Assembly (NCBI GenBank): GCA_038889235.1
Contig: JAWAHN010000005.1
Span: 1-22,048, forward strand
From: Candidatus Jordarchaeales archaeon
Lineage (GTDB): Archaea; Asgardarchaeota; Jordiarchaeia; Jordiarchaeales; Freyrarchaeaceae
Direction of reading: 5' to 3'
DNA length: 22,048 bases
Below the pieces are notes generated by a model. The model was not told where the DNA came from and did not search any database. It saw nothing but the letters and a program-made list of their open reading frames with translations. Each line of letters opens with the position of its first letter. The first letter of the stretch is position 1. Shown here in pieces: positions 1,500 through 12,089 of this stretch. Position numbers and translations under genes: made by a program.

Positions 1500-2438
1500 G
1501 TGATGTGTTTTGGTGTTGAGTTTTTTGGGGAAGGTTTTTATGTGTGGTGTTTGGGGGGTTTTGTGGTGGTTGTTTTGGGTTGGAGGTTTGTTTTTGTTTT
1601 TCCTTTTGTGTTGTTTTTTGTTTTCTTTCTTTATAGGGCGACGGTGGCTTCTTTTTATGGGAGTTTGAGGGCGCCGTTTTTTGTGTTTTTGGTTTATTTG
1701 GTTTTGTTTGTTGTTGTTAGGAGGTTTGGGGGTGTTTTTGCGCGTGTTGTGTTTGTGGCTGGTCTTGTTCATGTTTGTTTCTGTTTTTCGTTGGTGTTGA
1801 GGGCGAGTTTCGCTTCTGTTTTTGTTTCGCTTGTTCCTTTGCTTGTTTTGTTGTTTTTCGTGTTGGTGTGTTTTGTTGTTCGTTTGTGGCCTTGTGTTGG
1901 TGCTTCGGCTGTTCTTGATGGTTTTGCGGTTTTTGCTGGTTTGAAGGTTAGGTTGGTTGTTTTCTTTAAGCTTGGGGGTGTGGGGGATGTGGGGGTGCTG
2001 CTTGGGGAGGCTTGGTCTAGGCGTTTGTCTTTTACTGTTGAGAGGTTGGGGGGTGAGGTTTTTGTTTCTGTTTGTTTTGAGGGGTTTTCGTATGGGAGGG
2101 TTGAGGGGGCTGCCGTGGAGGGGGCTGGGTGGTTTGAGGAGGTGTTGAGGAGGGGTGGTTTTAGGCCTAGGAGGGTGGAGGGTTGGGTTGAGGTTGAGAG
2201 GCTTCTTTATGCTCCTTTGTCTCCTGGGTGGGAGGCTTTGTATTTTGAGCCGTGTGTTGGTGGGTGGTCTACTGTTCGCCTTTTGCCGCCTTTGGGGAGG
2301 AGGGGGAGGGCGGTGGCTGTTAGGCGCGCTTTCAAGCCGGGTGGGCTTGACCCTCACCCTCAGTTTGCGCTTAAAGCTTTTATTAGTGGTTTTCAAGATA
2401 GTTTTGAGGGGTGGCGTGTTGGAGCTGCGCGAGATTAA
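1500..2438 (+). CDS. Hypothetical integral membrane protein (about 4 N-terminal TM segments plus soluble alpha/beta C-terminal domain); start uncertain (1500, 1503 or 1542)
   Basis: 312-codon open frame whose stop overlaps the radA-like start. F/V/L/G-rich N-half, polar C-half. Composition is inflated by extreme G+T skew, so TM prediction is partly confounded. Confidence 0.6.
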   Translation: MMCFGVEFFGEGFYVWCLGGFVVVVLGWRFVFVFPFVLFFVFFLYRATVASFYGSLRAPFFVFLVYLVLFVVVRRFGGVFARVVFVAGLVHVCFCFSLVLRASFASVFVSLVPLLVLLFFVLVCFVVRLWPCVGASAVLDGFAVFAGLKVRLVVFFKLGGVGDVGVLLGEAWSRRLSFTVERLGGEVFVSVCFEGFSYGRVEGAAVEGAGWFEEVLRRGGFRPRRVEGWVEVERLLYAPLSPGWEALYFEPCVGGWSTVRLLPPLGRRGRAVAVRRAFKPGGLDPHPQFALKAFISGFQDSFEGWRVGAARD

Positions 2439-3402
2439 GGGGGTTGGACCTGAAACCCTTAGGAAGCTCATGGATGCGGGCTACACTACTGTTGAGAGTG
2501 TCGCTTTTGCCAGCCCGCAGGATCTTGCCTCTGATGCTGGGATAGGTGAGGCTACGGCTAGGAGGATAGTGGAGCAGGCGAGGAGGCTTGTCGCGAGCGG
2601 GGAGGGTAAGGGTGGGAGGCTCGTGCAGATACTTCCGGGGAGGGAGGCTAGGCGTATTCTGAGCAGCATAGAGAGGGTTACCACCGGTCTCAGGGGGCTC
2701 GACTCTATTCTCGGGGGCGGTGTCGAGACTTGTGCCATAACAGAGTTCTATGGTCCGGCTAGGGCCGGCAAAACCCAGCTCTGCCACCAGCTCTGCGTCA
2801 CGGTCCAGCTTCCGAGGGAGAGGGGTGGGCTCGAGGGTAGGGCATTGTACATAGACACTGAGAGGACGGTGAGGTATGACGCTATAGCGAGGATCGCTGA
2901 GAGGTTTGGGCTGGACCCGGACAGCGCTTGCGACAACGTTTTCTACACGTATGCCGTCAACAGTGAGGCGCTCCGGGAAACGATAAGGGGGCTCGACGGG
3001 GTGGTTAAGCAGGGCGCGGTGAAGCTGGTAGTGGTGGACTGCCTCACGGGGCACTTTAGGGCTGAGTACACTGGGAGGGAGACGCTGGCTTTGAGGCAGC
3101 AGCTCATAAACAGGATGATACACGACCTTCTCAGGCTTGCCTTAAGCTACGATCTGGCAGTTGTGGTCACAAACCAGGTTCACGCCCAGCCCGACGTTTG
3201 GGGCAAGAGCGAGGCGCCCACGGGGGGCCACGTCGTAGCCCACGGAGTAACGTACAGGGTTGGTCTCTCTGTGAAGAAGGGGAACGTTAGGATAGCGAGC
3301 TTGGTCGACGCGCCCGCTCTTCCGCCTTCATCCGCCTTCTTCGCTATAACCGACAGGGGGCTGGTGGATGTGAGCGAGGAGGAGGCTAAGAGGGGGGACT
3401 AG
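2416..3402 (+). CDS. radA: RadA/Rad51-family recombinase, divergent paralog with N-terminal HhH domain
   Basis: HhH ELREIKGVGPET, TTGLRGLDSILGGGVET, Walker A GPARAGKTQ, YIDTE, Walker B VVVD, FRAEYTGRE, TNQV, GGHVVAH, VDAP. Start placed at GTG 2416 after GAGGGG; the track extension to 2155 is low-complexity. Confidence 0.93.
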   Translation: MLELREIKGVGPETLRKLMDAGYTTVESVAFASPQDLASDAGIGEATARRIVEQARRLVASGEGKGGRLVQILPGREARRILSSIERVTTGLRGLDSILGGGVETCAITEFYGPARAGKTQLCHQLCVTVQLPRERGGLEGRALYIDTERTVRYDAIARIAERFGLDPDSACDNVFYTYAVNSEALRETIRGLDGVVKQGAVKLVVVDCLTGHFRAEYTGRETLALRQQLINRMIHDLLRLALSYDLAVVVTNQVHAQPDVWGKSEAPTGGHVVAHGVTYRVGLSVKKGNVRIASLVDAPALPPSSAFFAITDRGLVDVSEEEAKRGD

Positions 3403-3404
3403 CC

Positions 3405-3722
3405 GTGTTGAGGCCCCTTCCCAGGCGTGTTAGAAAGTTCGAGTCGGAGAGGAGGAGGCTGAAGAAGAACGTGAGGGTGGTTGCTTTGAGGGGGGAGAGG
3501 TGGATGGCCTACGCGTCTCTTCCCTGGATGCGCGAGCTCTGCGGCCACCTTTACGGGGAGAACTGCTGCGTCAAGCTGGAGGAGAAGGGGGAGGGAGTGG
3601 TCCAAGCCACGGTTTACGCCTCGACAGCCGAGCTGGCTGATGCCGTGGCCTCCGAGCTTGAAAGGGGGTTCGAGATTTTCAGGACGGTGGAAGGTTGGGA
3701 GAAGAGGAAGGGGCAGGCGTGA
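3405..3722 (+). CDS. Small hypothetical protein (105 aa)
   Basis: Fills the gap between radA-like stop (3402) and a GTGA stop/start overlap with the next gene. Host-like codon usage. Confidence 0.7.
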   Translation: MLRPLPRRVRKFESERRRLKKNVRVVALRGERWMAYASLPWMRELCGHLYGENCCVKLEEKGEGVVQATVYASTAELADAVASELERGFEIFRTVEGWEKRKGQA

Positions 3723-4315
3723 AGTTGAGGGGGAGGAGGCCGGACTACCTTCTCGTGTCGCTCGGAGCGCTGGCGGCGCTTACACTAGCGGTTGCCGCCG
3801 CACCCCAACTGGCCCCGCTCGCCGCCGCAGTGCTCCCCGCGCTGGCCGCGTACTTCGCCTGGAGGCTGCGCCCCCGGGCGCTCGGCGGTGTTGTCAGGCG
3901 CGAGTCGGCCTTCTTAGGGGATGTCGTAGCCTCGTGGGTTGGGGGGAGGTGGAGGGCTTACAGCATGTTGCAGGTTGCATCGGTCCCGGACGTCATACGT
4001 GGAGACGTGAAGCGCTTTTTCAGGATGATGTACCTTGAGGGGGTTCCATTCTTCTACCACGTGAGGCAGGGGCCTGCGTCCTCTTGGTTTGTGAAGGGCG
4101 GGCGTGAGGCTGCTGTGAGGGCTTCGGGGGTGTGGAGCACGTCCATAGTGATAGGTGTCTGGGGTGAGGGGGCGAGGTTGGACGACGCTGTGAGGGAGGC
4201 GAGGGCTAGGGCTGAGAAGGCTAAAGCATTCTTCGAGGCGTCCTTCCCCCACCACAGGGTCGAGCTGCTTAAGGGTGGAAGCCTAGTTGACGCCGTGAAG
4301 GAGTGTTTTCCGTGA
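3719..4315 (+). CDS. Hypothetical membrane-anchored protein (2 N-terminal TM segments plus alpha/beta domain)
   Basis: GTG 3719 overlaps the previous TGA. Hydrophobic hairpin LLVSLGALAALTLAVAAA / LAAAVLPALAAYFAW followed by a soluble domain. Same reading frame as the next ORF. Confidence 0.75.
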   Translation: MKLRGRRPDYLLVSLGALAALTLAVAAAPQLAPLAAAVLPALAAYFAWRLRPRALGGVVRRESAFLGDVVASWVGGRWRAYSMLQVASVPDVIRGDVKRFFRMMYLEGVPFFYHVRQGPASSWFVKGGREAAVRASGVWSTSIVIGVWGEGARLDDAVREARARAEKAKAFFEASFPHHRVELLKGGSLVDAVKECFP

Positions 4316-4324
4316 GGTGGAAGG

Positions 4325-5767
4325 TTGAAGAGGTTCCGCTTGACGGGCGACGAGCTGAGCAGGTATGTGTCATTTGAGGGCACTGTCCGCGTAGGGGTCA
4401 AGAGTAGGCCGCCGGCAGAGTTCACTCTTCCACCTCTCCCATTTGACTTCCCCGTGGGCCTGGTAGTTGAAGCCGAGAACGTGGCGCCGCACAGTGTTTT
4501 CGGGTTCACGGTGGAAAACATGGCTGAAGGAGTGCTCGTAGCTGGGGGGAGCGCGGAGGAAAGAGTCAACACGCTCCTGAGGATCCTGGGCGGCTCCTCG
4601 AAGCTGGGCTGGAATATCGCCGCCGCCACCTCAAGAAACCTGGCCCGCGTCAGGTCTGTTGCACCACAAGCCAGGGTTTATGACGGATTCCCCCTCAACC
4701 CCTTAGACCCGGAAGAGGCGGGGGGCGCGGAGTACGCTTCAGCCCTCTCACTCACGCTTCAGTCGGCCCTCGGGTTGACGGGCGGCCAGAGGCTCCTACT
4801 GGAGGACGCAATCGCAATGTGCATGGATGAGGGAGCTCTAACACTTGAGGAGCTTAAGGAGAAGGTTAGGGAGGCGGCTGTAAGCGAGCTGAGGAGCCAG
4901 GCGGAGAGAAGGGAGGCGGAGCTCCTACACAGGGAGCTGGGGTTGACCATGTCCCTTAAGGGGGCTGAAAAGCTGTCACCGGCAAACCCTTCGACGCTCC
5001 GCTGGATGGTTGAGGCGCCGACAGTCGCACTACTGTGGGAGCCTAGGCTGGCGGCGGTCGCCCAGGCTTCGCTCCTAGCTAAAGCGATGTGCTTGGAGGT
5101 TAGGGGGTTCAGCGTGCTCGTCGAACTAGACTGTTTTGCCGAGCCGGAGCCGCTCGCCGGGGTCTTTAGGAGGCTTAGGGAGAAGGAGGTCGGAGTGGTT
5201 GCTTTGTCGCCGAGCGTCTCGCACGCCGGCTCCGCCGCCAGCGTCCTCGGAAACAGGGTCATACACAGGCTTGAGGACGGCGGCGAGGCGGGGCTTGTAG
5301 GCAGGCTTATGGGGTTGAGGGAGGAGGGGGAGAGCGTGCAGAGCGGTAGGAGACACAGGCTGTACCAGGTGGAGGTGTTAAGGTTCCTCGAGTGGGGGGA
5401 GGCCGTGGTTCAGAGGAGCGACAACCCTTCCCCGGTTTTGGTAGTCTTCGAGATGGTTGAGGGGGGTGAGGCGAGGGCGGAGCCTGTTTCGGGGGCTGGA
5501 GGGGGGAGAACGCCGCTCGAAGTTGACTTCGGGAGCGACGCGGCCGACGCCTTGAAGGTAATACAGTTGGTCCACGACTTTCCGCAGATAACGCTGAGCC
5601 AGGTGGTGGGCGGCCTACCAGAGATTGGGGAGAAGGCGAGGGTTCTCGCGCTCAGGCTGGCGGATAGGGGCTACCTCGCGTCGTTCAGGGATGGGAGGGG
5701 GAGGAGGGTTTTCGTGGTGACGAGGAGGGGTGAGGATGCCTTGAGGAGGGTTAGGGGTGGGGGCTGA
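4325..5767 (+). CDS. HerA/VirB4-like (DUF87-type) ATPase-fold protein with degenerate Walker motifs and probable C-terminal wHTH
   Basis: Collinear family landmarks: GVLVAGGSAEER at the Walker A position, PLNPLDP, ALGLTGGQRLLL, RRLREKEVGVVALSPS (cf. REGRKYGVGVILATQ), NRVIHRL, LEWGEAVV. SD-like GAGGTG before TTG. Confidence 0.6.
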   Translation: MKRFRLTGDELSRYVSFEGTVRVGVKSRPPAEFTLPPLPFDFPVGLVVEAENVAPHSVFGFTVENMAEGVLVAGGSAEERVNTLLRILGGSSKLGWNIAAATSRNLARVRSVAPQARVYDGFPLNPLDPEEAGGAEYASALSLTLQSALGLTGGQRLLLEDAIAMCMDEGALTLEELKEKVREAAVSELRSQAERREAELLHRELGLTMSLKGAEKLSPANPSTLRWMVEAPTVALLWEPRLAAVAQASLLAKAMCLEVRGFSVLVELDCFAEPEPLAGVFRRLREKEVGVVALSPSVSHAGSAASVLGNRVIHRLEDGGEAGLVGRLMGLREEGESVQSGRRHRLYQVEVLRFLEWGEAVVQRSDNPSPVLVVFEMVEGGEARAEPVSGAGGGRTPLEVDFGSDAADALKVIQLVHDFPQITLSQVVGGLPEIGEKARVLALRLADRGYLASFRDGRGRRVFVVTRRGEDALRRVRGGG

Positions 5768-6572
5768 CCTTTCACCTTTCGCCTCGTGGCGCCGGGCGGG
5801 GGGCCTTGGGAGGCTTGCGGTCGACGGCATGAACGTGCTCGTCGGCCAGCTCAGGTGGTCGAGGTGGGGGTGGAGGGTGGCGGCGGTGAACACGCTTTAC
5901 AGGCTTTTGAGGCTGGTGGAGCTCGGGGCTCACCCCGTATTCGTCTACGATGGGAAGCCTCACAAGGCGAAGGTGAGGGGGGAGGGTGGGGTAGCGCTCA
6001 GGTCGGCTTTGGGGCTCGTCGTTGAGGGGGCCCGGCTCATGGGGGTCCCATGCGTCCAGGCGCCCGGGGAGGGGGAGGCGCAGGCGGCTTACATGGCTGC
6101 TATTGGAGTGGCTGACGCGGTTTTCACGTCGGACTATGATGCCTTCCTCTTTGGCTCGCCTGTCGTTGTGAGGGAGCGTGGGGGGCTGGAGGAGTGTACT
6201 CTTAGAAGCGTGTTGGAAGCTTCCGGGTTGACGCTCAGGCAACTTGTGGACGCAGCGGTCCTCTCGGGAACGGACTTCAACACGGGTGTGAAGGGGGTCG
6301 GGATAAGGAGGGCGGTGGCGCTCGTGAAGGAGCATGGGTGCCTTGAGGGGGCACTGCGAGCCCTCGGAGTAAGTGAGTGTGACGAGTTCATCGAGGCGAG
6401 GAGGCTCTTTCTAGATCCTGACGTGGCGGATGTCAAAGTGGTGTTCGTAGCCCCCCAGATTGCTGGGCTCAGAAAGCTTCTCTCCGAGCATCTCTCAGAG
6501 TCTCACGCTGAAAACTTCGTCAAAAGACTGATGAATGCTAGGACGAGGCAGTTGAGGCTGGTGGAAGATTGA
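5757..6572 (+). CDS. FEN1/XPG-family 5' structure-specific nuclease paralog with shortened arch region
   Basis: MGADL start, LAVDG, PVFVYDGKP, QAPGEGEAQAAYM, SDYDAFLFG, GTDFNTGVKGVG (H2TH/H3TH). All acidic metal-ligand positions present. 271 aa vs about 340 aa for typical archaeal FEN1. Confidence 0.92.
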   Translation: MGADLSPFASWRRAGGLGRLAVDGMNVLVGQLRWSRWGWRVAAVNTLYRLLRLVELGAHPVFVYDGKPHKAKVRGEGGVALRSALGLVVEGARLMGVPCVQAPGEGEAQAAYMAAIGVADAVFTSDYDAFLFGSPVVVRERGGLEECTLRSVLEASGLTLRQLVDAAVLSGTDFNTGVKGVGIRRAVALVKEHGCLEGALRALGVSECDEFIEARRLFLDPDVADVKVVFVAPQIAGLRKLLSEHLSESHAENFVKRLMNARTRQLRLVED

Positions 6573-7306
6573 TTGACGCGTTAGTGTTTGTGGCGGCTTT
6601 AGCTGTAGTGGTGGCGGCGGCCGCGGCTTACGTTCTTGGAAGACACGTGTTGGCGGCGTTAGTGTGGCTGAAGCTTGCAGGCTGGGCGGCTAGGGTTGTA
6701 GTACGCCACTGGAGGCTGGGGGCAACGGTGGCTGCCGCTGCATTTGCTTTCGTGCTTCTTCAGGCGCCACTTCAAAGCGCGGCCTTCGCGGTCTTACCAT
6801 CTCTCCTAGCTGGCGCGGCTGCGTGGTTGCTGCTGCACGGGAGGGGGAGGGGGGCGGCAGCTTTGGGACTACTGGCGCTCACGTCAGTTGCTGCGCCGCG
6901 TGCGGCTCAGGCTCTGGCGCCGCTGGCCGCCGTGACAACGCTAGCGGCGGTAGCCCTAGCGGTGTTGGGGCTTGCTGCTTCAACTTTAAAAGGCAGAACG
7001 CCGCGGGAGGCCTTTCAAGCCACATATACTACTCCGGGGCTGACGGGAACTGTGGTGGGGGCGGTCAAAGAGAAAGGAGGGGTTAGGGTGGTTATGGTGG
7101 CCGTTGCAGACGGCGAGACGACGAGGGTGACTATCTCTGGAACGCTGAGAGACGAGTTCGAGGAGAAAGCGGGGGGAGTGGTGGCGAGCACCGTAAACAC
7201 TACGCGCGAGGTTAAAAAAGCCTGGAAACGCTACCTTGAGAGGGGAGACCCGCAGCTTGCGGTCACCTTGCTCTTAAAAACACTTCGGGCGGGTAACGGT
7301 CACTAG
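6569..7306 (+). CDS. Hypothetical multi-pass membrane protein with small C-terminal soluble domain
   Basis: TTGA start/stop overlap with the nuclease. About 4-5 Ala/Leu/Val hydrophobic segments in the first 140 aa. Confidence 0.75.
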   Translation: MIDALVFVAALAVVVAAAAAYVLGRHVLAALVWLKLAGWAARVVVRHWRLGATVAAAAFAFVLLQAPLQSAAFAVLPSLLAGAAAWLLLHGRGRGAAALGLLALTSVAAPRAAQALAPLAAVTTLAAVALAVLGLAASTLKGRTPREAFQATYTTPGLTGTVVGAVKEKGGVRVVMVAVADGETTRVTISGTLRDEFEEKAGGVVASTVNTTREVKKAWKRYLERGDPQLAVTLLLKTLRAGNGH

Positions 7307-7333
7307 GGGCAGGTTGGACGAGGAGAACTGGAG

Positions 7334-7720
7334 GTGGGTTGCTTGGCTGTTAGGGTTTGTGTTTGCAGCCTTTGTGGCTCGTACTTCTCGTCTAAGGCTG
7401 GGAGGCCTAGGTGTCCTAGGTGTGGGGGGTGGGGGAGGGTGGTTGAGGAGGTTCTTGGAGCTGCGGCGGCGGCTCGGAGGGTGAGGGAGTTGCAGGCTTG
7501 TTCCAGCTTCCAGGAGTCTGGGGTTGTGGGGCCCGGTCGCTGTAAGCTGAGGGGGATGGGTAAGCTTAAATCCTATGTTGAGAGGCTTGGAGGAGTGGTG
7601 ACGGTGGAGGAGCTAGAGAGGGAGTTCGACGAGGAGTGGCTTAAGGTAGCTCTGGAGGAGCTTGAGGCGAGGGGTTTGGTTGTGAGGGTGGGTGGGAAGC
7701 TAGTTTTCAGGGAGGTGTAG
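7334..7720 (+). CDS. Zn-ribbon plus winged-helix protein (start may be TTG 7343)
   Basis: CSLCG...CPRCG pair. C-terminal VTVEELERE...ALEELEARGLVVRVGG pattern typical of wHTH. GGAGGTGG SD before 7343. Confidence 0.7.
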   Translation: MGCLAVRVCVCSLCGSYFSSKAGRPRCPRCGGWGRVVEEVLGAAAAARRVRELQACSSFQESGVVGPGRCKLRGMGKLKSYVERLGGVVTVEELEREFDEEWLKVALEELEARGLVVRVGGKLVFREV

Positions 7721-7724
7721 GGGG

Positions 7725-8369
7725 TTGTCGTCCCTTGGCGGGCGGACTAGGGCTGCTAGGAGTGGGGGGCTTGTGATCCACGTTTGGGGGGAGGCTGGGA
7801 GCGGGAAGACCGCTCTCGCGGCTCGGGTAGCTTCAACTCTCTCCGAGGAGGGCTTCCACGTCATATATGTCTCAGATAGGCTTCCCAGGAGTGTTTGGGG
7901 GGATGTTGAGCGGGTGACCTTTGTAGTGGCTTCCGATGAGCGCGTTATTCCGGAGCTCCCAGACACGCTGGAGAGGCTTGTGAATCCGAGAACGAGGCTG
8001 ATAGTCTTGGACACTGCTGCCTCGCTTTACGGGCATTTGCCGAGAACCGCGAAACTGAGGCTTCTCCCGCTGGTCCTCCTGAAGCTTAAAAGGCTCGCAG
8101 CTGAGAAGGGGGTCTCAACCTTACTGCTAAACGACGCAGTGCAGGCGAGCGGTGGGGTGAAGCCGTGGGAGCAGGAAGAACTAGAGAAGTACGCGGACTT
8201 AACAGTTCACCTGGCGAAGTGGGACGGCGAGCGGATAGCTAAAGGCGCCCCGCTTACAGACTACCTCCCATGGGAGGCGCTAGAAACACTGGCCGCGAAA
8301 AGCGGTGAAACAGCGAGAGGAAGCCAAACCGGAAACACGGCACTAAACGCTAGGCGAAGCCGCGGGTAA
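7725..8369 (+). CDS. RecA-superfamily P-loop ATPase, RadB/aRadC-like (no HhH domain)
   Basis: Walker A WGEAGSGKT, HVIYVS, Walker B LIVLDT, LKRLAAEKGVSTLLLND (cf. LARKYDIAVVITNQ). GGAGGTG SD at 7711-7717. Confidence 0.78.
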   Translation: MSSLGGRTRAARSGGLVIHVWGEAGSGKTALAARVASTLSEEGFHVIYVSDRLPRSVWGDVERVTFVVASDERVIPELPDTLERLVNPRTRLIVLDTAASLYGHLPRTAKLRLLPLVLLKLKRLAAEKGVSTLLLNDAVQASGGVKPWEQEELEKYADLTVHLAKWDGERIAKGAPLTDYLPWEALETLAAKSGETARGSQTGNTALNARRSRG

Positions 8370-9156: not shown

Positions 9157-10062
9157 TCAGACAGAGATGTTTAATCCAAGTTCCTTCACTATTTGTTTAT
9201 ATCTATTCCTGATGGTGACTTCGGTGCATCTTGCTACTTCTGCGATTTCCCTTTGGGCTCTTCTTTCTCCTGTTAGTATGCCGGCGATGTACAGTATGGC
9301 GGCTGCTAGTCCGGTTGGGTCTTTGCCGCTTGTTAATCCTTTGGCTTTTGCTTTTTGCAGTATTTCTAGCGCTTTTATTCTAGTTTTTGTTGAGAGGTTG
9401 AGTTCTTCTGCGAATCTTGGGATGAAGTCTGCTGGGTCTGGTCGGGGTGTCTTGAGTTGAAGCCCTCTTAGGATTAGTCTGATGCAGTGTGCTAGCTCTT
9501 TTCGGTTTACTTTTGCTGTGTGCTCGATTTCGTCTAGGGGTCGTGGGACCTTGTGCTCTCTGCAGGCTAGGTACACTGCGGCGGCTACCATGCTGTCGAT
9601 CGATCTTCCTCTTACCAGTCCGTTCTCGAGCGCCCTTCTGTATATGTATGCGGCTGTTTCTCTGATCTCTCTTGGCACTCCAATTTGGCTTGCGATTCTG
9701 TTGAGTTCGGGCATGGCTTGTGCGAGATTCCTGTCCTCCGAGTTCGTGACGCGCGTTCGCACCTGCCATTTTCTTATCCTGTATATTTGGGCTCTTCTTC
9801 TTGGCGAGATTTTGCGCCCATACGCGTCTCTATCTGATTTTGATATTGTTGTGCTTAGTCCTCTGTCTGGCATTCTTAGTGTTAGTGGTGACCCTGTTCT
9901 CGCTCTGTCTCTTTTTTCTTCTGGCGTGAATGCTCTCCATTCTGGCCCTGTGTCTATCATTGTGTTGTCTATGACTAGTCCGCACTCGCTGCATGTGGTT
10001 TCGCCCCTGACATAGTCTCTTATGATGTTTGTGCTGCCGCAGTTTGGGCATTGGGTGGTCAT
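9157..10062 (-). CDS. tfb: Transcription initiation factor IIB (TFB), full length
   Basis: Zn ribbon CPNC..CSEC, B-reader GPEWRAF, RIRKWQ, RNLAQA, two cyclin repeats, GKDPTGLAAA, TEVTIRNRYK. SD GAGGTGA upstream. Confidence 0.98.
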   Translation of the reverse strand: MTTQCPNCGSTNIIRDYVRGETTCSECGLVIDNTMIDTGPEWRAFTPEEKRDRARTGSPLTLRMPDRGLSTTISKSDRDAYGRKISPRRRAQIYRIRKWQVRTRVTNSEDRNLAQAMPELNRIASQIGVPREIRETAAYIYRRALENGLVRGRSIDSMVAAAVYLACREHKVPRPLDEIEHTAKVNRKELAHCIRLILRGLQLKTPRPDPADFIPRFAEELNLSTKTRIKALEILQKAKAKGLTSGKDPTGLAAAILYIAGILTGERRAQREIAEVARCTEVTIRNRYKQIVKELGLNISV

Positions 10063-10171: not shown

Positions 10172-10564
10172 TTATGTGATGGTTGTTATTTCGACGCTTG
10201 ATACTCCTTGTATTTGTTGTATTTGCTGCATGAGTTGTTGTGGGTCTGTTTTCAGTTGTGCTTTATCTAGGTATGCTTCGTAGTAGCATTGTTTTCCTTT
10301 CTTGCAGAGTCCTGTGGTGTAAAGAAATGTGATGTTGTTTTTTACGATTATTGTTCCGAGTTCTTTTAGGAATTTTTGTGTGAGTTTGTCTATTGTTATT
10401 GTTATTTTTATTGTTTGGGGGCTTTGTGTTGGTATTATTCTTATTTCTCCTGTTGTCGCGATTGCTATAGCGTTTGTCTGCTGCAGTTGCTGTGTTAGTT
10501 CTGGTGGTATTTGTGCGGGTTGCCCAGGGTTTATTGTTATCATTTTTGCTGTTGTTAGGGGCAT
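10172..10564 (-). CDS. Hypothetical protein, possibly with a C-terminal ACT-like domain
   Basis: 130 aa, coupled (9-nt gap) to the SCP2 gene. C-half IKITITID..FLKELGTII..ITFLYTTGLC..CYYEAYLD..IQQIQGVSSVEI fits a beta-alpha-beta-beta-alpha-beta pattern. Confidence 0.6.
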   Translation of the reverse strand: MPLTTAKMITINPGQPAQIPPELTQQLQQTNAIAIATTGEIRIIPTQSPQTIKITITIDKLTQKFLKELGTIIVKNNITFLYTTGLCKKGKQCYYEAYLDKAQLKTDPQQLMQQIQQIQGVSSVEITTIT

Positions 10565-10573
10565 GTTTTCGCC

Positions 10574-10918
10574 TCAGAGCTCGTCTCGGGCTATTTCGAG
10601 TATTGTTCTGAATTTTACTGCGTCTGGTAGGGGTCCTGTTATTTTTAGGTCTCCGCTCATGTAGGCTGATGTTGCGTCTAGTTCTCCTTTTAGTATTGCT
10701 AGTATTGTTTCTTTGCTTGCTTCGAATGTGAGGTCGGGGTTTTGGTGTGTGCCCTGGTGTATTGTTAGTTTTCCGTTTTTTGTTTGGACGTAGAATGGTT
10801 GGGCTCCTTCTATGTTGAACTGGAGTATTCTGTCCCATCCTTCTATCTCTGCCTGTATGTCTTCGTTTTTTGCTGCGATTTCTTCTATTTTTTTGAGGAG
10901 TTGCTCTAGTTCTTCCAT
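10574..10918 (-). CDS. SCP2 sterol/lipid-binding domain protein
   Basis: ILQFNI..FYVQTKNGKLTIHQG...PDLTFEAS...ILKGELDATSAYMSGDLKITG is the SCP2 family signature. Confidence 0.9.
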   Translation of the reverse strand: MEELEQLLKKIEEIAAKNEDIQAEIEGWDRILQFNIEGAQPFYVQTKNGKLTIHQGTHQNPDLTFEASKETILAILKGELDATSAYMSGDLKITGPLPDAVKFRTILEIARDEL

Positions 10919-10964
10919 TTTTCATCCCTTTTTGTGGTTTTGGTTTGGGTTTTTGTGCCAGGTG

Positions 10965-11117: not shown

Positions 11118-12089
11118 ATGAGTGTGGTTGTTTATGAAGTTGACGAGGAAGGTGAGCTTGTCGGTCTTCCAGGGTTGAGCAGGGATGTTCTAGGAAGTGA
11201 GAAGGTCGTCATAGTTGTCGCCGAGAGGCAGAAGAAGATTTACCTGTGGAAGGGGAAGCGCTCCTCTGTTAAGAAGAAGTTTGTTGGAGCTAGGAAGGCT
11301 GCCGACTTGAGGGCGGAGTGGGGGCTGACTTTCAAAGTGGTGGCTGTCGACGAAGGGGAGGAGGACAGCGACTTTTTGGGGTTGATGGGCGCGAAGGCCG
11401 AGGCTCCCGTAAGGGCTCAGAGGAGGGCTGAAGCTGCTGTGGAGGTTGAGAGGGCGCGCACTGAGAAAGTCGAGGCTGTCCAGGAACGTGTGGCTGAAAA
11501 GGCGCGCGCCGAAAAAGTTGAGATTGTTCAGGAACGTGTGGCTGAAAGAGCGCGTGTCCCAGCCGAGAGGGTTGAGGTCGTTCAGGAGAGGGCGGCTGAG
11601 AGGGTTCGTGTTCAGCCTGTTGAGAGGGTTGAGGTTGTTCAGGAACGTGTGATTGGGGGGGCGCGCGCTGAAAAAGTTGAGGGGGGTTCTGCTGTTTCGG
11701 GGGTCCGTGTTCAGCCTGGTGGTGTTCAGGGTGGAGGTCAGCTTTCTGGTGATTTGAGTGAGGAGTTTGTGCTTTCTAAGTTGAGCGAGGTTGGAGTCCC
11801 TGAGGGTTATGTTAGGGAGATGGTTGTTGTCGGCCCGTGTGTTTATGTTGTGAAGGAGGTTAGGTCGAGTATTTTTGGTAGGGAGAGGGTGGAGCGTAGG
11901 TTGGAGAGGGTTGAGCCGCCTGAGGGCGTTTTTGTTGTTGAGGACTTTGTTACTAGGGTTATTGTTGATGGTGGTAGGGTTGTGGCCGTGGAGTTTTTGA
12001 GGGAGGATAAGGGTCGGGGCGTTGAGGCTTTGAAGAGCGAGATGGTTAAGCACCTTGAGGATATTATTTCCGCGTTTAGGAGCGGCTAG
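11118..12089 (+). CDS. Gelsolin-domain protein with repetitive charged linker and C-terminal extra domain (Asgard 1DGelX-like architecture)
   Basis: N-terminal ~90 aa VVIV..KKIYLWKGKRSSVKKKFVGARKAADL...VDEGEEDSDFL matches the gelsolin-repeat pattern (IYxWxG...xEGxExxxF). C-terminal domain VPEGYVREMVVVG...PPEGVF...RVIVDGGRVVAVEFL. Confidence 0.75.
   Translation: MSVVVYEVDEEGELVGLPGLSRDVLGSEKVVIVVAERQKKIYLWKGKRSSVKKKFVGARKAADLRAEWGLTFKVVAVDEGEEDSDFLGLMGAKAEAPVRAQRRAEAAVEVERARTEKVEAVQERVAEKARAEKVEIVQERVAERARVPAERVEVVQERAAERVRVQPVERVEVVQERVIGGARAEKVEGGSAVSGVRVQPGGVQGGGQLSGDLSEEFVLSKLSEVGVPEGYVREMVVVGPCVYVVKEVRSSIFGRERVERRLERVEPPEGVFVVEDFVTRVIVDGGRVVAVEFLREDKGRGVEALKSEMVKHLEDIISAFRSG
11454..11681 (+). 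repeat. Intragenic tandem repeat, about 4.5 units of 48-57 nt encoding ~ARAEKVEVVQERVAEK
   Basis: Units begin GCGCGC/GCGCGT/GTTCGT and share GAxAxxGTYGAG..GTYCAGGA. CAGGAACGTGTG occurs three times. Confidence 0.9.

Follow-up and report, generated by a model that had tools for sequence, protein, structure and literature searches.

What would an archaeon gain from a compact operon in which altered copies of its recombination enzymes are encoded among membrane proteins? The question is raised by nine genes that fill positions 1500-8369 of contig C5, one of the eight contigs in a 2.14-Mb genome bin (G000) of an uncultured hot-spring Asgard archaeon of the class Jordarchaeia. The window analysed here is the whole of this contig, 22,048 bp. 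An earlier note on this DNA had proposed that the nine genes form a module for cell-to-cell DNA uptake and homologous exchange. The reading that we favour, with a probability of roughly 40%, is that the operon encodes a membrane-anchored recombination module, and that uptake or exchange of DNA from another cell best accounts for what such a module would do.

All nine open reading frames (ORFs) are on the + strand and are tightly packed, in the order w312, RadA paralog, w105, w206, w480, FEN1/XPG paralog, w245, w128 and w214. With the GTG codons at 2416 (RadA paralog) and 3719 (w206) taken as starts, the successive junctions are an overlap of 23 nt, a gap of 2 nt, an overlap of 4 nt, a gap of 9 nt, overlaps of 11 and 4 nt and gaps of 27 and 4 nt. 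Nine co-directional ORFs with the same coordinates and junctions had been given in the earlier note, and the gene identities proposed there also hold: a RadA paralog, a HerA/VirB4-like protein, a FEN1 paralog, a RadB-like ATPase, a Zn-ribbon/winged helix-turn-helix protein (the winged-helix part by eye only) and three membrane proteins. The note had presumed separate housekeeping copies of the enzymes, and canonical radA and fen1 were indeed found on contig C1 (818133-818852 and 803210-803491), together with a RadB-like gene. The block is a real conserved operon, in which remodelled paralogs of repair enzymes are joined to membrane proteins.

The RadA paralog gene (2155/2416-3402, +) encodes 327-328 amino acids, with an N-terminal helix-hairpin-helix (HhH) domain followed by a RecA-like core that carries Walker A (GPARAGKT) and Walker B motifs. 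The product matched Pfam Rad51 (1.1e-73) and HHH_5 (5e-15) and scored 348 bits with NCBIfam NF003301, whose cut-off is 259; in the alignment, G112-T119 and D207 are invariant. Both hallmarks of RadA/Rad51 proteins, namely the HhH domain at the N-terminus and the Rad51-type RecA core with its Walker motifs, are therefore present. The linker between them is about 10 amino acids longer than that of canonical RadA and reads ILPG where the canonical protein has GFISA (the GFxSA polymerisation motif), and an FxxA-type motif is lacking. The paralog is 50.7% identical to the canonical RadA of its own genome. Between genera, it retains 83.7% identity, against 87.2% for canonical RadA; across the phylum, the corresponding values are 38.6% and 61.3%, so that over longer distances the paralog has changed more rapidly.

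Three separate groups, all well supported, emerged in an unrooted tree: the paralogs of Jordarchaeales, those of the type found in the distant Asgard family f31, and the canonical RadAs. Both paralog clades have long branches. Computed from sequences without an outgroup, such a tree does not show a single duplication origin of the Asgard RadA paralogs. A second RadA clade has been described in Heimdall-, Njord-, Gerd- and, less robustly, Lokiarchaea, without gene neighbourhoods and with no mention of Jordarchaeia (Matsuo et al. 2025, PMC12722695). The present case is similar in that an extra full-length RadA stands beside the canonical one, and differs in that the Jordarchaeales and f31 paralogs fall into two long-branch clades. 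One genome of the sister family f2 (G116) has two canonical RadA genes of nearly identical score besides the paralog.

The second recombinase-type ATPase, w214 (7725-8369, +), has a RecA fold without an N-terminal domain, and its Walker A (GEAGSGKT) and Walker B motifs are intact. Since it scored only 32 bits (E 1.1e-7) with the RadB model TIGR02237, whose cut-off is 172, and otherwise matched Pfam AAA_16, AAA_22 and AAA_25, we class it by sequence as RadB-like but not as RadB proper. The gene in front of it, w128 (7334-7720, +), encodes a Zn ribbon (CxxC-x12-CxxC) and a putative C-terminal winged helix, recognised by eye from the sequence pattern; the ribbon matched weakly the Zn finger of bacterial RadA/Sms (TIGR00416, E 0.0019). 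With the w128 ribbon followed by the RecA-fold w214, there is a loose resemblance to the Zn-finger/RecA-like layout of that protein.

The third enzyme is a FEN1/XPG paralog of 271 amino acids (5757-6572, +), which matched Pfam XPG_I (3.7e-20) and scored 163 bits with the archaeal FEN model TIGR03674, under the cut-off of 352. When aligned with the FEN1 of its own genome, all seven catalytic acids (D23, D65, E105, E107, D126, D128 and D173) are invariant and the H3TH motif (GVKGVG) is present, but gaps appear at alignment columns 41-55, 96-127 and 197-212. The XPG core, its metal ligands and the H3TH are thus kept, while the helical arch, the wedge loop, the beta-pin and the C-terminal PIP box of FEN1 are missing. 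FEN1 threads 5′ flaps through its helical arch, and arch-less members of the Rad2/XPG family, GEN1 and Yen1, resolve Holliday junctions. The nuclease shares with GEN1/Yen1 the XPG core, an intact active site, the H3TH and the lack of an arch; it has no chromodomain, is much smaller and bears no sequence sign of specific kinship with them, and an activity on junctions is putative. The RadA paralog, w214 and the nuclease have all retained their catalytic residues, unlike the VirB4-like protein that is encoded among them.

This protein is split between two genes. Its N-terminal half, w206 (3695-4315, +, with an alternative start at GTG 3719), has two transmembrane helices by hydropathy and an N-domain of the VirB4/TraC/DUF87 type: in the ESM Atlas, residues 60-206 gave TM values of 0.47-0.55 to DUF87/HerA_C, TraC-like and CagE_TrbE_VirB clusters, the nearest cluster being labelled Thorarchaeota. 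The C-terminal half, w480 (4325-5767, +), has a fold of the FtsK/HerA superfamily and a C-terminal winged helix (residues 411-470 weakly matched a MarR-type regulator chain by sequence, E 0.49). Its AlphaFold2 model has a mean confidence score (pLDDT) of 62, with the core (residues 100-310) at 72-96. Foldseek searches of the Protein Data Bank (PDB) retrieved TrwB (1e9s, 4.5e-5), VirB4 (4ag5, 4.7e-5), DndH-C (7es4) and HerA (4d2i, 2.7e-3), and the matching AlphaFold Database clusters were DUF87, HerA and TraC. In most other lineages, the two halves form one fused protein of 760-880 amino acids, with whose N-terminal part of about 300 amino acids w206 clusters. The family is rare, with 61 relatives of w480 in 1.84 billion representative proteins.

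As can be seen from the Walker A site of w480, which reads GGSAEER, the P-loop lysine is absent. None of the 29 family members examined has GK[ST] at this site; in all of them, GG[ST/x]xxER stands there instead, behind a hydrophobic strand, and in most an acidic strand resembling Walker B is retained. Because the loss extends to the whole family and a new conserved motif has taken the place of the old one, continued function of another kind rather than decay is the likely explanation. The sequences indicate that the loss is ancient and family-wide, and that a motor has been turned into a scaffold. The invariant w480 motif FGFTVEN was considered as a RadA-binding peptide of the BRC/FxxA type and rejected, since its position in the alignment is, in all members, that of the strand in front of the P-loop.

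In the fused protein, a transmembrane anchor, an FtsK/HerA-fold core and a C-terminal winged helix follow each other in the same order as the domains of FtsK. One could therefore envisage an FtsK/SpoIIIE-like device that handles the chromosome at cell division, with the recombinase and the junction nuclease of the operon replacing XerCD; the pairing of the VirB4-like protein with a recombinase and a structure-specific nuclease would suit such a role. A dead motor does not, and neither does the dispensability of the module that is described below. In addition, TrwB and VirB4 are the best fold matches of w480, and FtsK is not among its 50 best PDB matches. We regard this as the least probable of the explanations considered.

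The remaining products offer fewer clues to function. By hydropathy the block encodes three membrane proteins: w206 and the products of w312 (1500-2438, +) and w245 (6569-7306, +). The w312 protein, whose true start is probably near 1572, has four or five N-terminal helices, two to four of them transmembrane by hydropathy, followed by tandem beta-alpha-beta units that make up its soluble C-terminal part (AlphaFold2 model, pLDDT 71). It is 52% and 39% identical to the gene products encoded just upstream of the RadA paralog in two other Jordarchaeales loci (L009 and L010, respectively), and the ortholog alignment contains 77 invariant columns. No Pfam family and no significant fold or PDB sequence match was found for w312. 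Two structural candidates were rejected as being below the noise bar, namely designed helical bundles for the transmembrane part (VIA Z 8.4) and the N-terminal part of TrwK/VirB4 (7o42_A) for residues 125-273 (VIA Z 6.5), and we claim no kinship with either; comparison of w312 with w206 by hhalign gave a probability of 1.8%.

The w245 protein is polytopic, with about five transmembrane segments by hydropathy and a soluble C-terminal domain of about 90 amino acids. It is 41% and 30% identical to the product of the last operon gene in L009 and L010, is some 60 amino acids shorter and more diverged than its orthologs, and keeps 61% of the residues that are otherwise invariant. No PDB sequence match was obtained for w245, and its ESM Atlas model is poor (pLDDT 0.53). 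Searches of the PDB sequences with profiles of the w480, w245 and w312 alignments likewise gave nothing significant. The last member of the block, w105 (3405-3722, +), is a small soluble protein with a basic N-terminus, a conserved CGHLYGExCC motif and no recognised fold; it is 67% and 41% identical to the product of the gene at the same position in L009 and L010, and had no match among Pfam, PHROG, NCBIfam and PADLOC families.

The + strand between 1300 and 2438, which encloses the w312 gene, consists of 80-87% G+T, and an independent assembly has the same patch. The coding strand of w312 has 80% G+T, compared with 50-59% in the orthologs of four other genomes. The gene nevertheless keeps 76% of the ortholog-invariant residues, and most of its changes are conservative (L>V, I>V, T>V). 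From the sequence, the patch looks like the result of mutation with a strand bias peculiar to this lineage (on the + strand, A>G and C>T) in a gene that would still be under selection.

Conservation of the gene order argues that these proteins belong together. Full-length relatives of w480 (62-84% identity) occur only in Jordarchaeales and Ca. Freyrarchaeum, and in at least five further assemblies of Jordarchaeales all nine proteins have homologs (30-92% identity) whose genes have stayed together in a block, as the synteny comparison proposed in the earlier note revealed. The usual order is DEAD helicase, w128, w214, w312, RadA paralog, w105, w206, w480, XPG nuclease, w245. Here the w128-w214 pair follows w245 instead of preceding w312, i.e., the order is circularly permuted, and the operon is located on C5 behind a CRISPR array. 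An assembly artefact was ruled out, since two independent Logan assemblies from other runs have the same order at 99.8% identity. By its Logan contigs, the organism is present in runs SRR27730019 and SRR21619497. In a genome of the same genus (G113), the standard order is found between the standard flanks (GT2, HAD, GGACT, NfeD and SpoIIM). In the genome under study these flanks are at C3:304972-312076, away from the operon. The usual operon site, between p195/HAD/NfeD/SpoIIM and GT2 (C3:312000-319000), is taken up by a low-GC (36-40%) island of unrelated ORFs. A further member of the genus (G114), with a genome 92% complete, encodes the canonical RadA but neither the RadA paralog nor w480. 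Judged by its sequence distribution, the block is movable and dispensable within the genus, which makes it an accessory module.

In other Jordarchaeales (L009:130-6293 and L029:494-5978), the block is preceded by co-directional genes for proteins of about 507, 274, 183 and about 200 amino acids and then by that for a DEAD/Suv3-like helicase of 580-610 amino acids. The product of 183 amino acids is a small Arf/Ras/Roc-like GTPase. The five genes are tightly spaced, and their G+C content (GC) is raised like that of the block. No close homolog of any of the five, the linked DEAD helicase included, was found in the whole assembly studied here. In a locus of family f2 (L025, G116:C1:2526000-2545999), a gene for a protein of 888 amino acids with an M28-peptidase-like domain separates the RadA paralog from the w206/w480 pair.

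A block that has changed its place and order might be the remnant or cargo of an integrated conjugative or plasmid-like element whose transfer genes have decayed. Such an origin would agree with the VirB4-like fold, would explain why the VirB4-like gene is dead, and could be invoked for the difference in locus and the permuted order relative to the genus-mate and for a GC of about 60%, against 47-51% in the large contigs. The block contains, however, no integrase, relaxase, replication or capsid gene according to Pfam and PHROGs, and no relatives of w480 were found in the virus, plasmid and phage collections IMG/VR, PLSDB and INPHARED; the earlier note, which had seen no relaxase, integrase or capsid gene and had argued against a plain mobile element, was right on this point. 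The raised GC is no mark of foreign DNA, because the third-position GC (GC3) of the block, 0.62-0.80, matches that of serB, HAD, UROD and other neighbouring genes on C5, and a foreign island inferred from high GC was therefore rejected. The identities of the block's proteins to those of the genus-mate are also like those of flanking chromosomal genes, and the phylum-wide loss of the P-loop with gain of a new conserved motif speaks for a long-term function. We consider a mobile remnant very unlikely.

We also asked whether C5 as a whole, with a GC of 54.5%, might come from another organism, and rejected this. Its CRISPR repeat is identical to that of arrays on C1-C3, its last gene (at the 3′ end) shares a 98.8% identical overlap with the end of C1, and each of its housekeeping genes is the only copy in the assembly; for these reasons we take C5 to be chromosomal and part of this genome.

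To see how far the operon extends beyond Jordarchaeales, a profile of w480 was searched in 400 Asgard genomes, and 444 ORFs from 29 excised loci were clustered. Relatives of w480 were present in 53 of the 400 genomes, among them all six of the sister family f2. In the distant family f31, and in some others, the VirB4-like protein is encoded in a conserved run of about 15 genes. The run begins with two small genes, the RadA paralog, genes for about 147 and about 208 amino acids, an XPD-type helicase (Pfam DEAD_2/HBB/Helicase_C_2), a two-transmembrane-segment protein and a gene for about 104 amino acids. It continues with the fused VirB4-like protein, a DEAD/Suv3/Hel308-like helicase, a protein with mid-chain transmembrane segments, a RadB-like ATPase, a polytopic membrane protein, a second RadB-like ATPase and an XPG nuclease.

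Comparison by hhalign connected w128 with the gene for about 147 amino acids that follows the RadA paralog in f31 (cluster F6; 96.8%, E 2.5e-10) and w214 with the small RadB-like genes of the f31 operon (99.3%, E 4e-20). Six components are therefore common to the short form described above and this long form: the RadA paralog, the Zn-ribbon/winged-helix protein, the RadB-like ATPase, the VirB4/HerA-like protein, the XPG nuclease and the DEAD helicase. In both forms, genes for membrane proteins are scattered among them, and most lineages add one or two helicases. The short form has nine core genes, no XPD helicase and a split VirB4-like gene. No relation of w312, w105, w245 or w206 to the f31 clusters F5, F7, F8, F9, F10, F12 and F13 was found by hhalign, and w312 and w245 are thus without detectable homology to the membrane proteins of the long form. 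In f31, the VirB4-like gene, as detected with the long-form profile, is single-copy and present in 54 of 86 genomes, in 19 of the 23 of high quality and in 15 of 16 genera. The best explanation of these data is that the nine Jordarchaeial genes are a trimmed version of a vertically inherited Asgard operon for a membrane-anchored recombination machine.

The long operon of one distant Asgard genome extends to L028:3-4391 (- strand), where a surface-type protein with a prenyltransferase alpha-alpha toroid, Big_3_5 and filamin repeats is encoded; its length is at least 1462 amino acids, as the frame runs off the fetched stretch.

A machine with this composition need not have anything to do with foreign DNA. 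It may be an internal, membrane-tethered repair or recombination complex that acts on breaks, stalled forks or cross-links at the envelope, in which the VirB4-like ring is only an anchor or DNA clamp and no DNA is imported. Every recognisable enzyme of the operon is a paralog of a repair protein, and the relatives add helicases of the XPD and Hel308/Ski2 types. In f31 the operon is widely inherited, as a single copy and mostly by vertical descent, the RadA paralog changes slowly between genera, and a motor-dead VirB4-like protein speaks against active transport. On the other hand, such a role leaves unexplained the three to four conserved membrane proteins and the VirB4 N-domain of the type found in type IV secretion systems (T4SS); housekeeping RadA, RadB-like and FEN1 genes are already present, and the module is dispensable within the genus. 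Purely internal repair is, in our estimate, somewhat unlikely.

The surroundings of the block suggest yet another role. Directly upstream, at positions 29-1285, a CRISPR array in which a 36-nt repeat occurs in 17 perfect copies runs off the start of the contig. The repeat ends in ATTGAAAG, the spacers are 37-48 nt long, and a decayed 18th copy is found at 1325-1361. C1 begins and C3 ends with an array of the identical repeat, another array of it is found at C2:3201-3885, and the presence of the same repeat at contig ends suggests that arrays are where the assembly breaks. No match to the block, the genome or any fetched locus was found for any of the genome's 73 CRISPR spacers.

Given this neighbourhood, the operon might be an undescribed defence system against viruses or plasmids, in which a sensor in the membrane would recognise incoming DNA, to be bound by the recombinase-like and helicase ATPases and degraded by the FEN-like nuclease. 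The initial interpretation of CRISPR-Cas, too, was that of a repair system, and paralogs of repair enzymes packed together with membrane proteins are a common make-up of defence loci. The presence of the block also varies within the genus, and it has moved. Yet in the other Jordarchaeales the block is not located beside CRISPR. No system model of PADLOC-DB 2.0 matched it, the only matches being generic P-loop ones to mad8 (E 1e-4 to 5e-3), and a 2026 survey of the Asgard defensome makes no mention of RadA, HerA, FEN1 or XPD (PMC13700489). The f31 pattern, which is single-copy, order-keeping and nearly universal in high-quality genomes, would be unusual for defence genes, and the RadA paralog is about as conserved between genera as the housekeeping RadA. 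Defence is thus distinctly unlikely.

Comparison with known systems provides arguments for handling of DNA from another cell. Ced of Sulfolobales and Ted of Thermoproteales are DNA-import systems that arose by domestication of T4SS, and Ted loci are found together with genes for HerA and Rad50 (Beltran et al. 2023, PMC9905601). Like Ced and Ted, the operon studied here is chromosomal and combines membrane proteins with a protein of the VirB4/HerA fold, and like Ted loci it brings these together with genes of homologous recombination. It differs from both in that the VirB4-like protein is split in two and has no Walker A lysine, so that an intact translocation ATPase is absent, in that the operon carries a RadA paralog, a RadB-like ATPase and a FEN-type nuclease of its own, and in that the host is an Asgard archaeon rather than a member of Thermoproteota. 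CedB is thought to be the import motor of Ced. The earlier note had likened the HerA/VirB4-like protein to such an ATPase, and this has stood in part: the 480-amino-acid ORF does have the VirB4/TrwB/HerA fold, with E values of about 5e-5 for 1e9s and 4ag5, and its partner has the VirB4/TraC-type N-domain. These two features give the link to T4SS-derived systems structural backing. What has fallen is the role as import motor, because without the Walker A lysine, missing in all 29 members, the protein cannot be a motor of the CedB type, and the operon falls outside Ced/Ted proper.

Two other comparisons are of interest. With operons of the Mre11-Rad50-HerA-NurA type the block shares a gene of the HerA superfamily beside that of a 5′ nuclease (with an overlap of 11 nt here) and the presence of recombination ATPases in the operon. 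The HerA-like protein is, however, dead, membrane-anchored and winged-helix-bearing in our case, the nuclease is of the XPG type instead of NurA, and no Mre11 or Rad50 domain was found in the block with Pfam; a HerA-NurA system in the strict sense is thus absent. Bacterial natural transformation relies on the ComEC channel, the DEAD-box ATPase ComFA, DprA, RecA and RadA/Sms. Here the resemblance is one of functional analogy only, in the combined logic of a membrane channel, a DEAD-type ATPase, a recombinase and a mediator: no homology to ComEC, ComFA or DprA was found, and it is the parts lists that are alike, not the families.

Taken together, these comparisons led us to rank DNA from another cell first, because the scaffold has T4SS ancestry, membrane proteins are part of the operon and Ted loci, which lie beside HerA and Rad50 genes, provide a precedent (PMC9905601). 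Several observations weigh against this choice. The VirB4-like protein, which is the part that defines T4SS-type transport, has no GK[ST] in 29 of 29 members and so would lack the usual ATP hydrolysis. No homolog of VirB6/CedA or VirB2/CedA1 was detected in w245, w312 or the rest of the block, a negative that is weak because the families are very divergent: channel and pilin families of Ced and Ted share almost no sequence identity even with each other (PMC9905601). The poorly modelled w245 has about five transmembrane segments, compared with six or seven in VirB6/CedA/TedA-like channels, and no small ORF with two such segments, as expected for VirB2/CedA1/TedC-like proteins, is present within the block, to which this search was confined, apart from the N-terminal hairpin of w206. 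The absence of the module from the 92%-complete genome of the same genus means that its function is dispensable. Finally, the passage of DNA across the membrane is hypothetical, and a purely internal repair role would fit the same parts. Of the uptake and exchange module proposed in the earlier note, the conserved operon, the paralogs and the VirB4 fold have thus been borne out, the import motor and the VirB6/VirB2 parts have not, and the proposal as a whole keeps the status of a hypothesis.

If DNA from another cell is indeed the substrate, one can picture the following sequence of events. All products would form one complex at the membrane, where the dead VirB4-like ring would serve as a scaffold beside a channel or contact site made by w245 and w312 and would hold DNA through its winged helix. 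Incoming single-stranded or broken DNA, most likely from another cell, would be coated by the RadA paralog with the assistance of the pair of RadB-like and Zn-ribbon proteins, and the paralog would then pair it with the chromosome. The nuclease would trim or resolve the flaps, D-loops or junctions that result. Since it has no arch, it could, like GEN1, accept unbroken strands, and since it has neither an arch for a free 5′ end nor a PCNA tail, its substrates are inferred to be recombination intermediates rather than Okazaki flaps. Energy would be supplied by the recombinase-type ATPases (in the relatives, also by the DEAD and XPD helicases) and not by the VirB4-like protein.

Downstream of the operon, the window contains an unassigned ORF, a full-length gene for the transcription factor TFB and ordinary metabolic genes. 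An ORF at 11118-12089 gave a weak match to the Gelsolin repeat (Pfam, E 0.0023); proteins with gelsolin repeats are typical eukaryote-signature proteins of Asgard archaea. A minus-strand ORF of 220 amino acids at 10263-10925 is more likely a gene for an SCP2-domain protein of 114 amino acids, which is called at 10574-10918 in other assemblies. The TFB gene (9157-10062, - strand), 0.8 kb downstream of the operon, encodes a paralog with a Zn ribbon and two cyclin repeats; a second TFB, 53% identical to the first, is encoded at C2:4013-4897, about 130 bp from the CRISPR array on C2. When DNA is damaged in Sulfolobales, the operons for Ced, Ups and HerA are under the control of a TFB paralog, TFB3 (PMC9905601).

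No published description of the operon was found in the literature on Asgard recombination, on VirB4/Ced-type import and on Jordarchaeia. The system is undescribed and new in kind, and should it prove to import DNA, its descent from T4SS-type machinery would be a very remote one. To our knowledge, no DNA transfer system has been reported for Asgard archaea, and the operon bears on how these organisms exchange or repair DNA. With its extra RadA, its ATPase resembling Rad51 paralogs and its junction-type nuclease, it also bears on whether specialised recombinase paralogs and GEN1-like nucleases predate eukaryotes. The replacement of the VirB4 P-loop by a new motif throughout a family clearly illustrates how a motor can become a scaffold, and the parts, being small, thermostable and in several cases soluble enough, are suited to work in vitro. 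A more far-reaching proposal, which we put forward as speculative and rather doubtful, is that Asgard archaea ancestrally had a vertically inherited apparatus for cell-to-cell DNA uptake and recombination, made of a specialised RadA paralog, mediators like Rad51 paralogs, a GEN1-like nuclease and a motor-dead VirB4 ring. If this is true, the operon would represent a prokaryotic precursor of specialised (sexual) recombination within the lineage from which eukaryotes arose, with a division of labour between RadA proteins like that between Rad51 and Dmc1.

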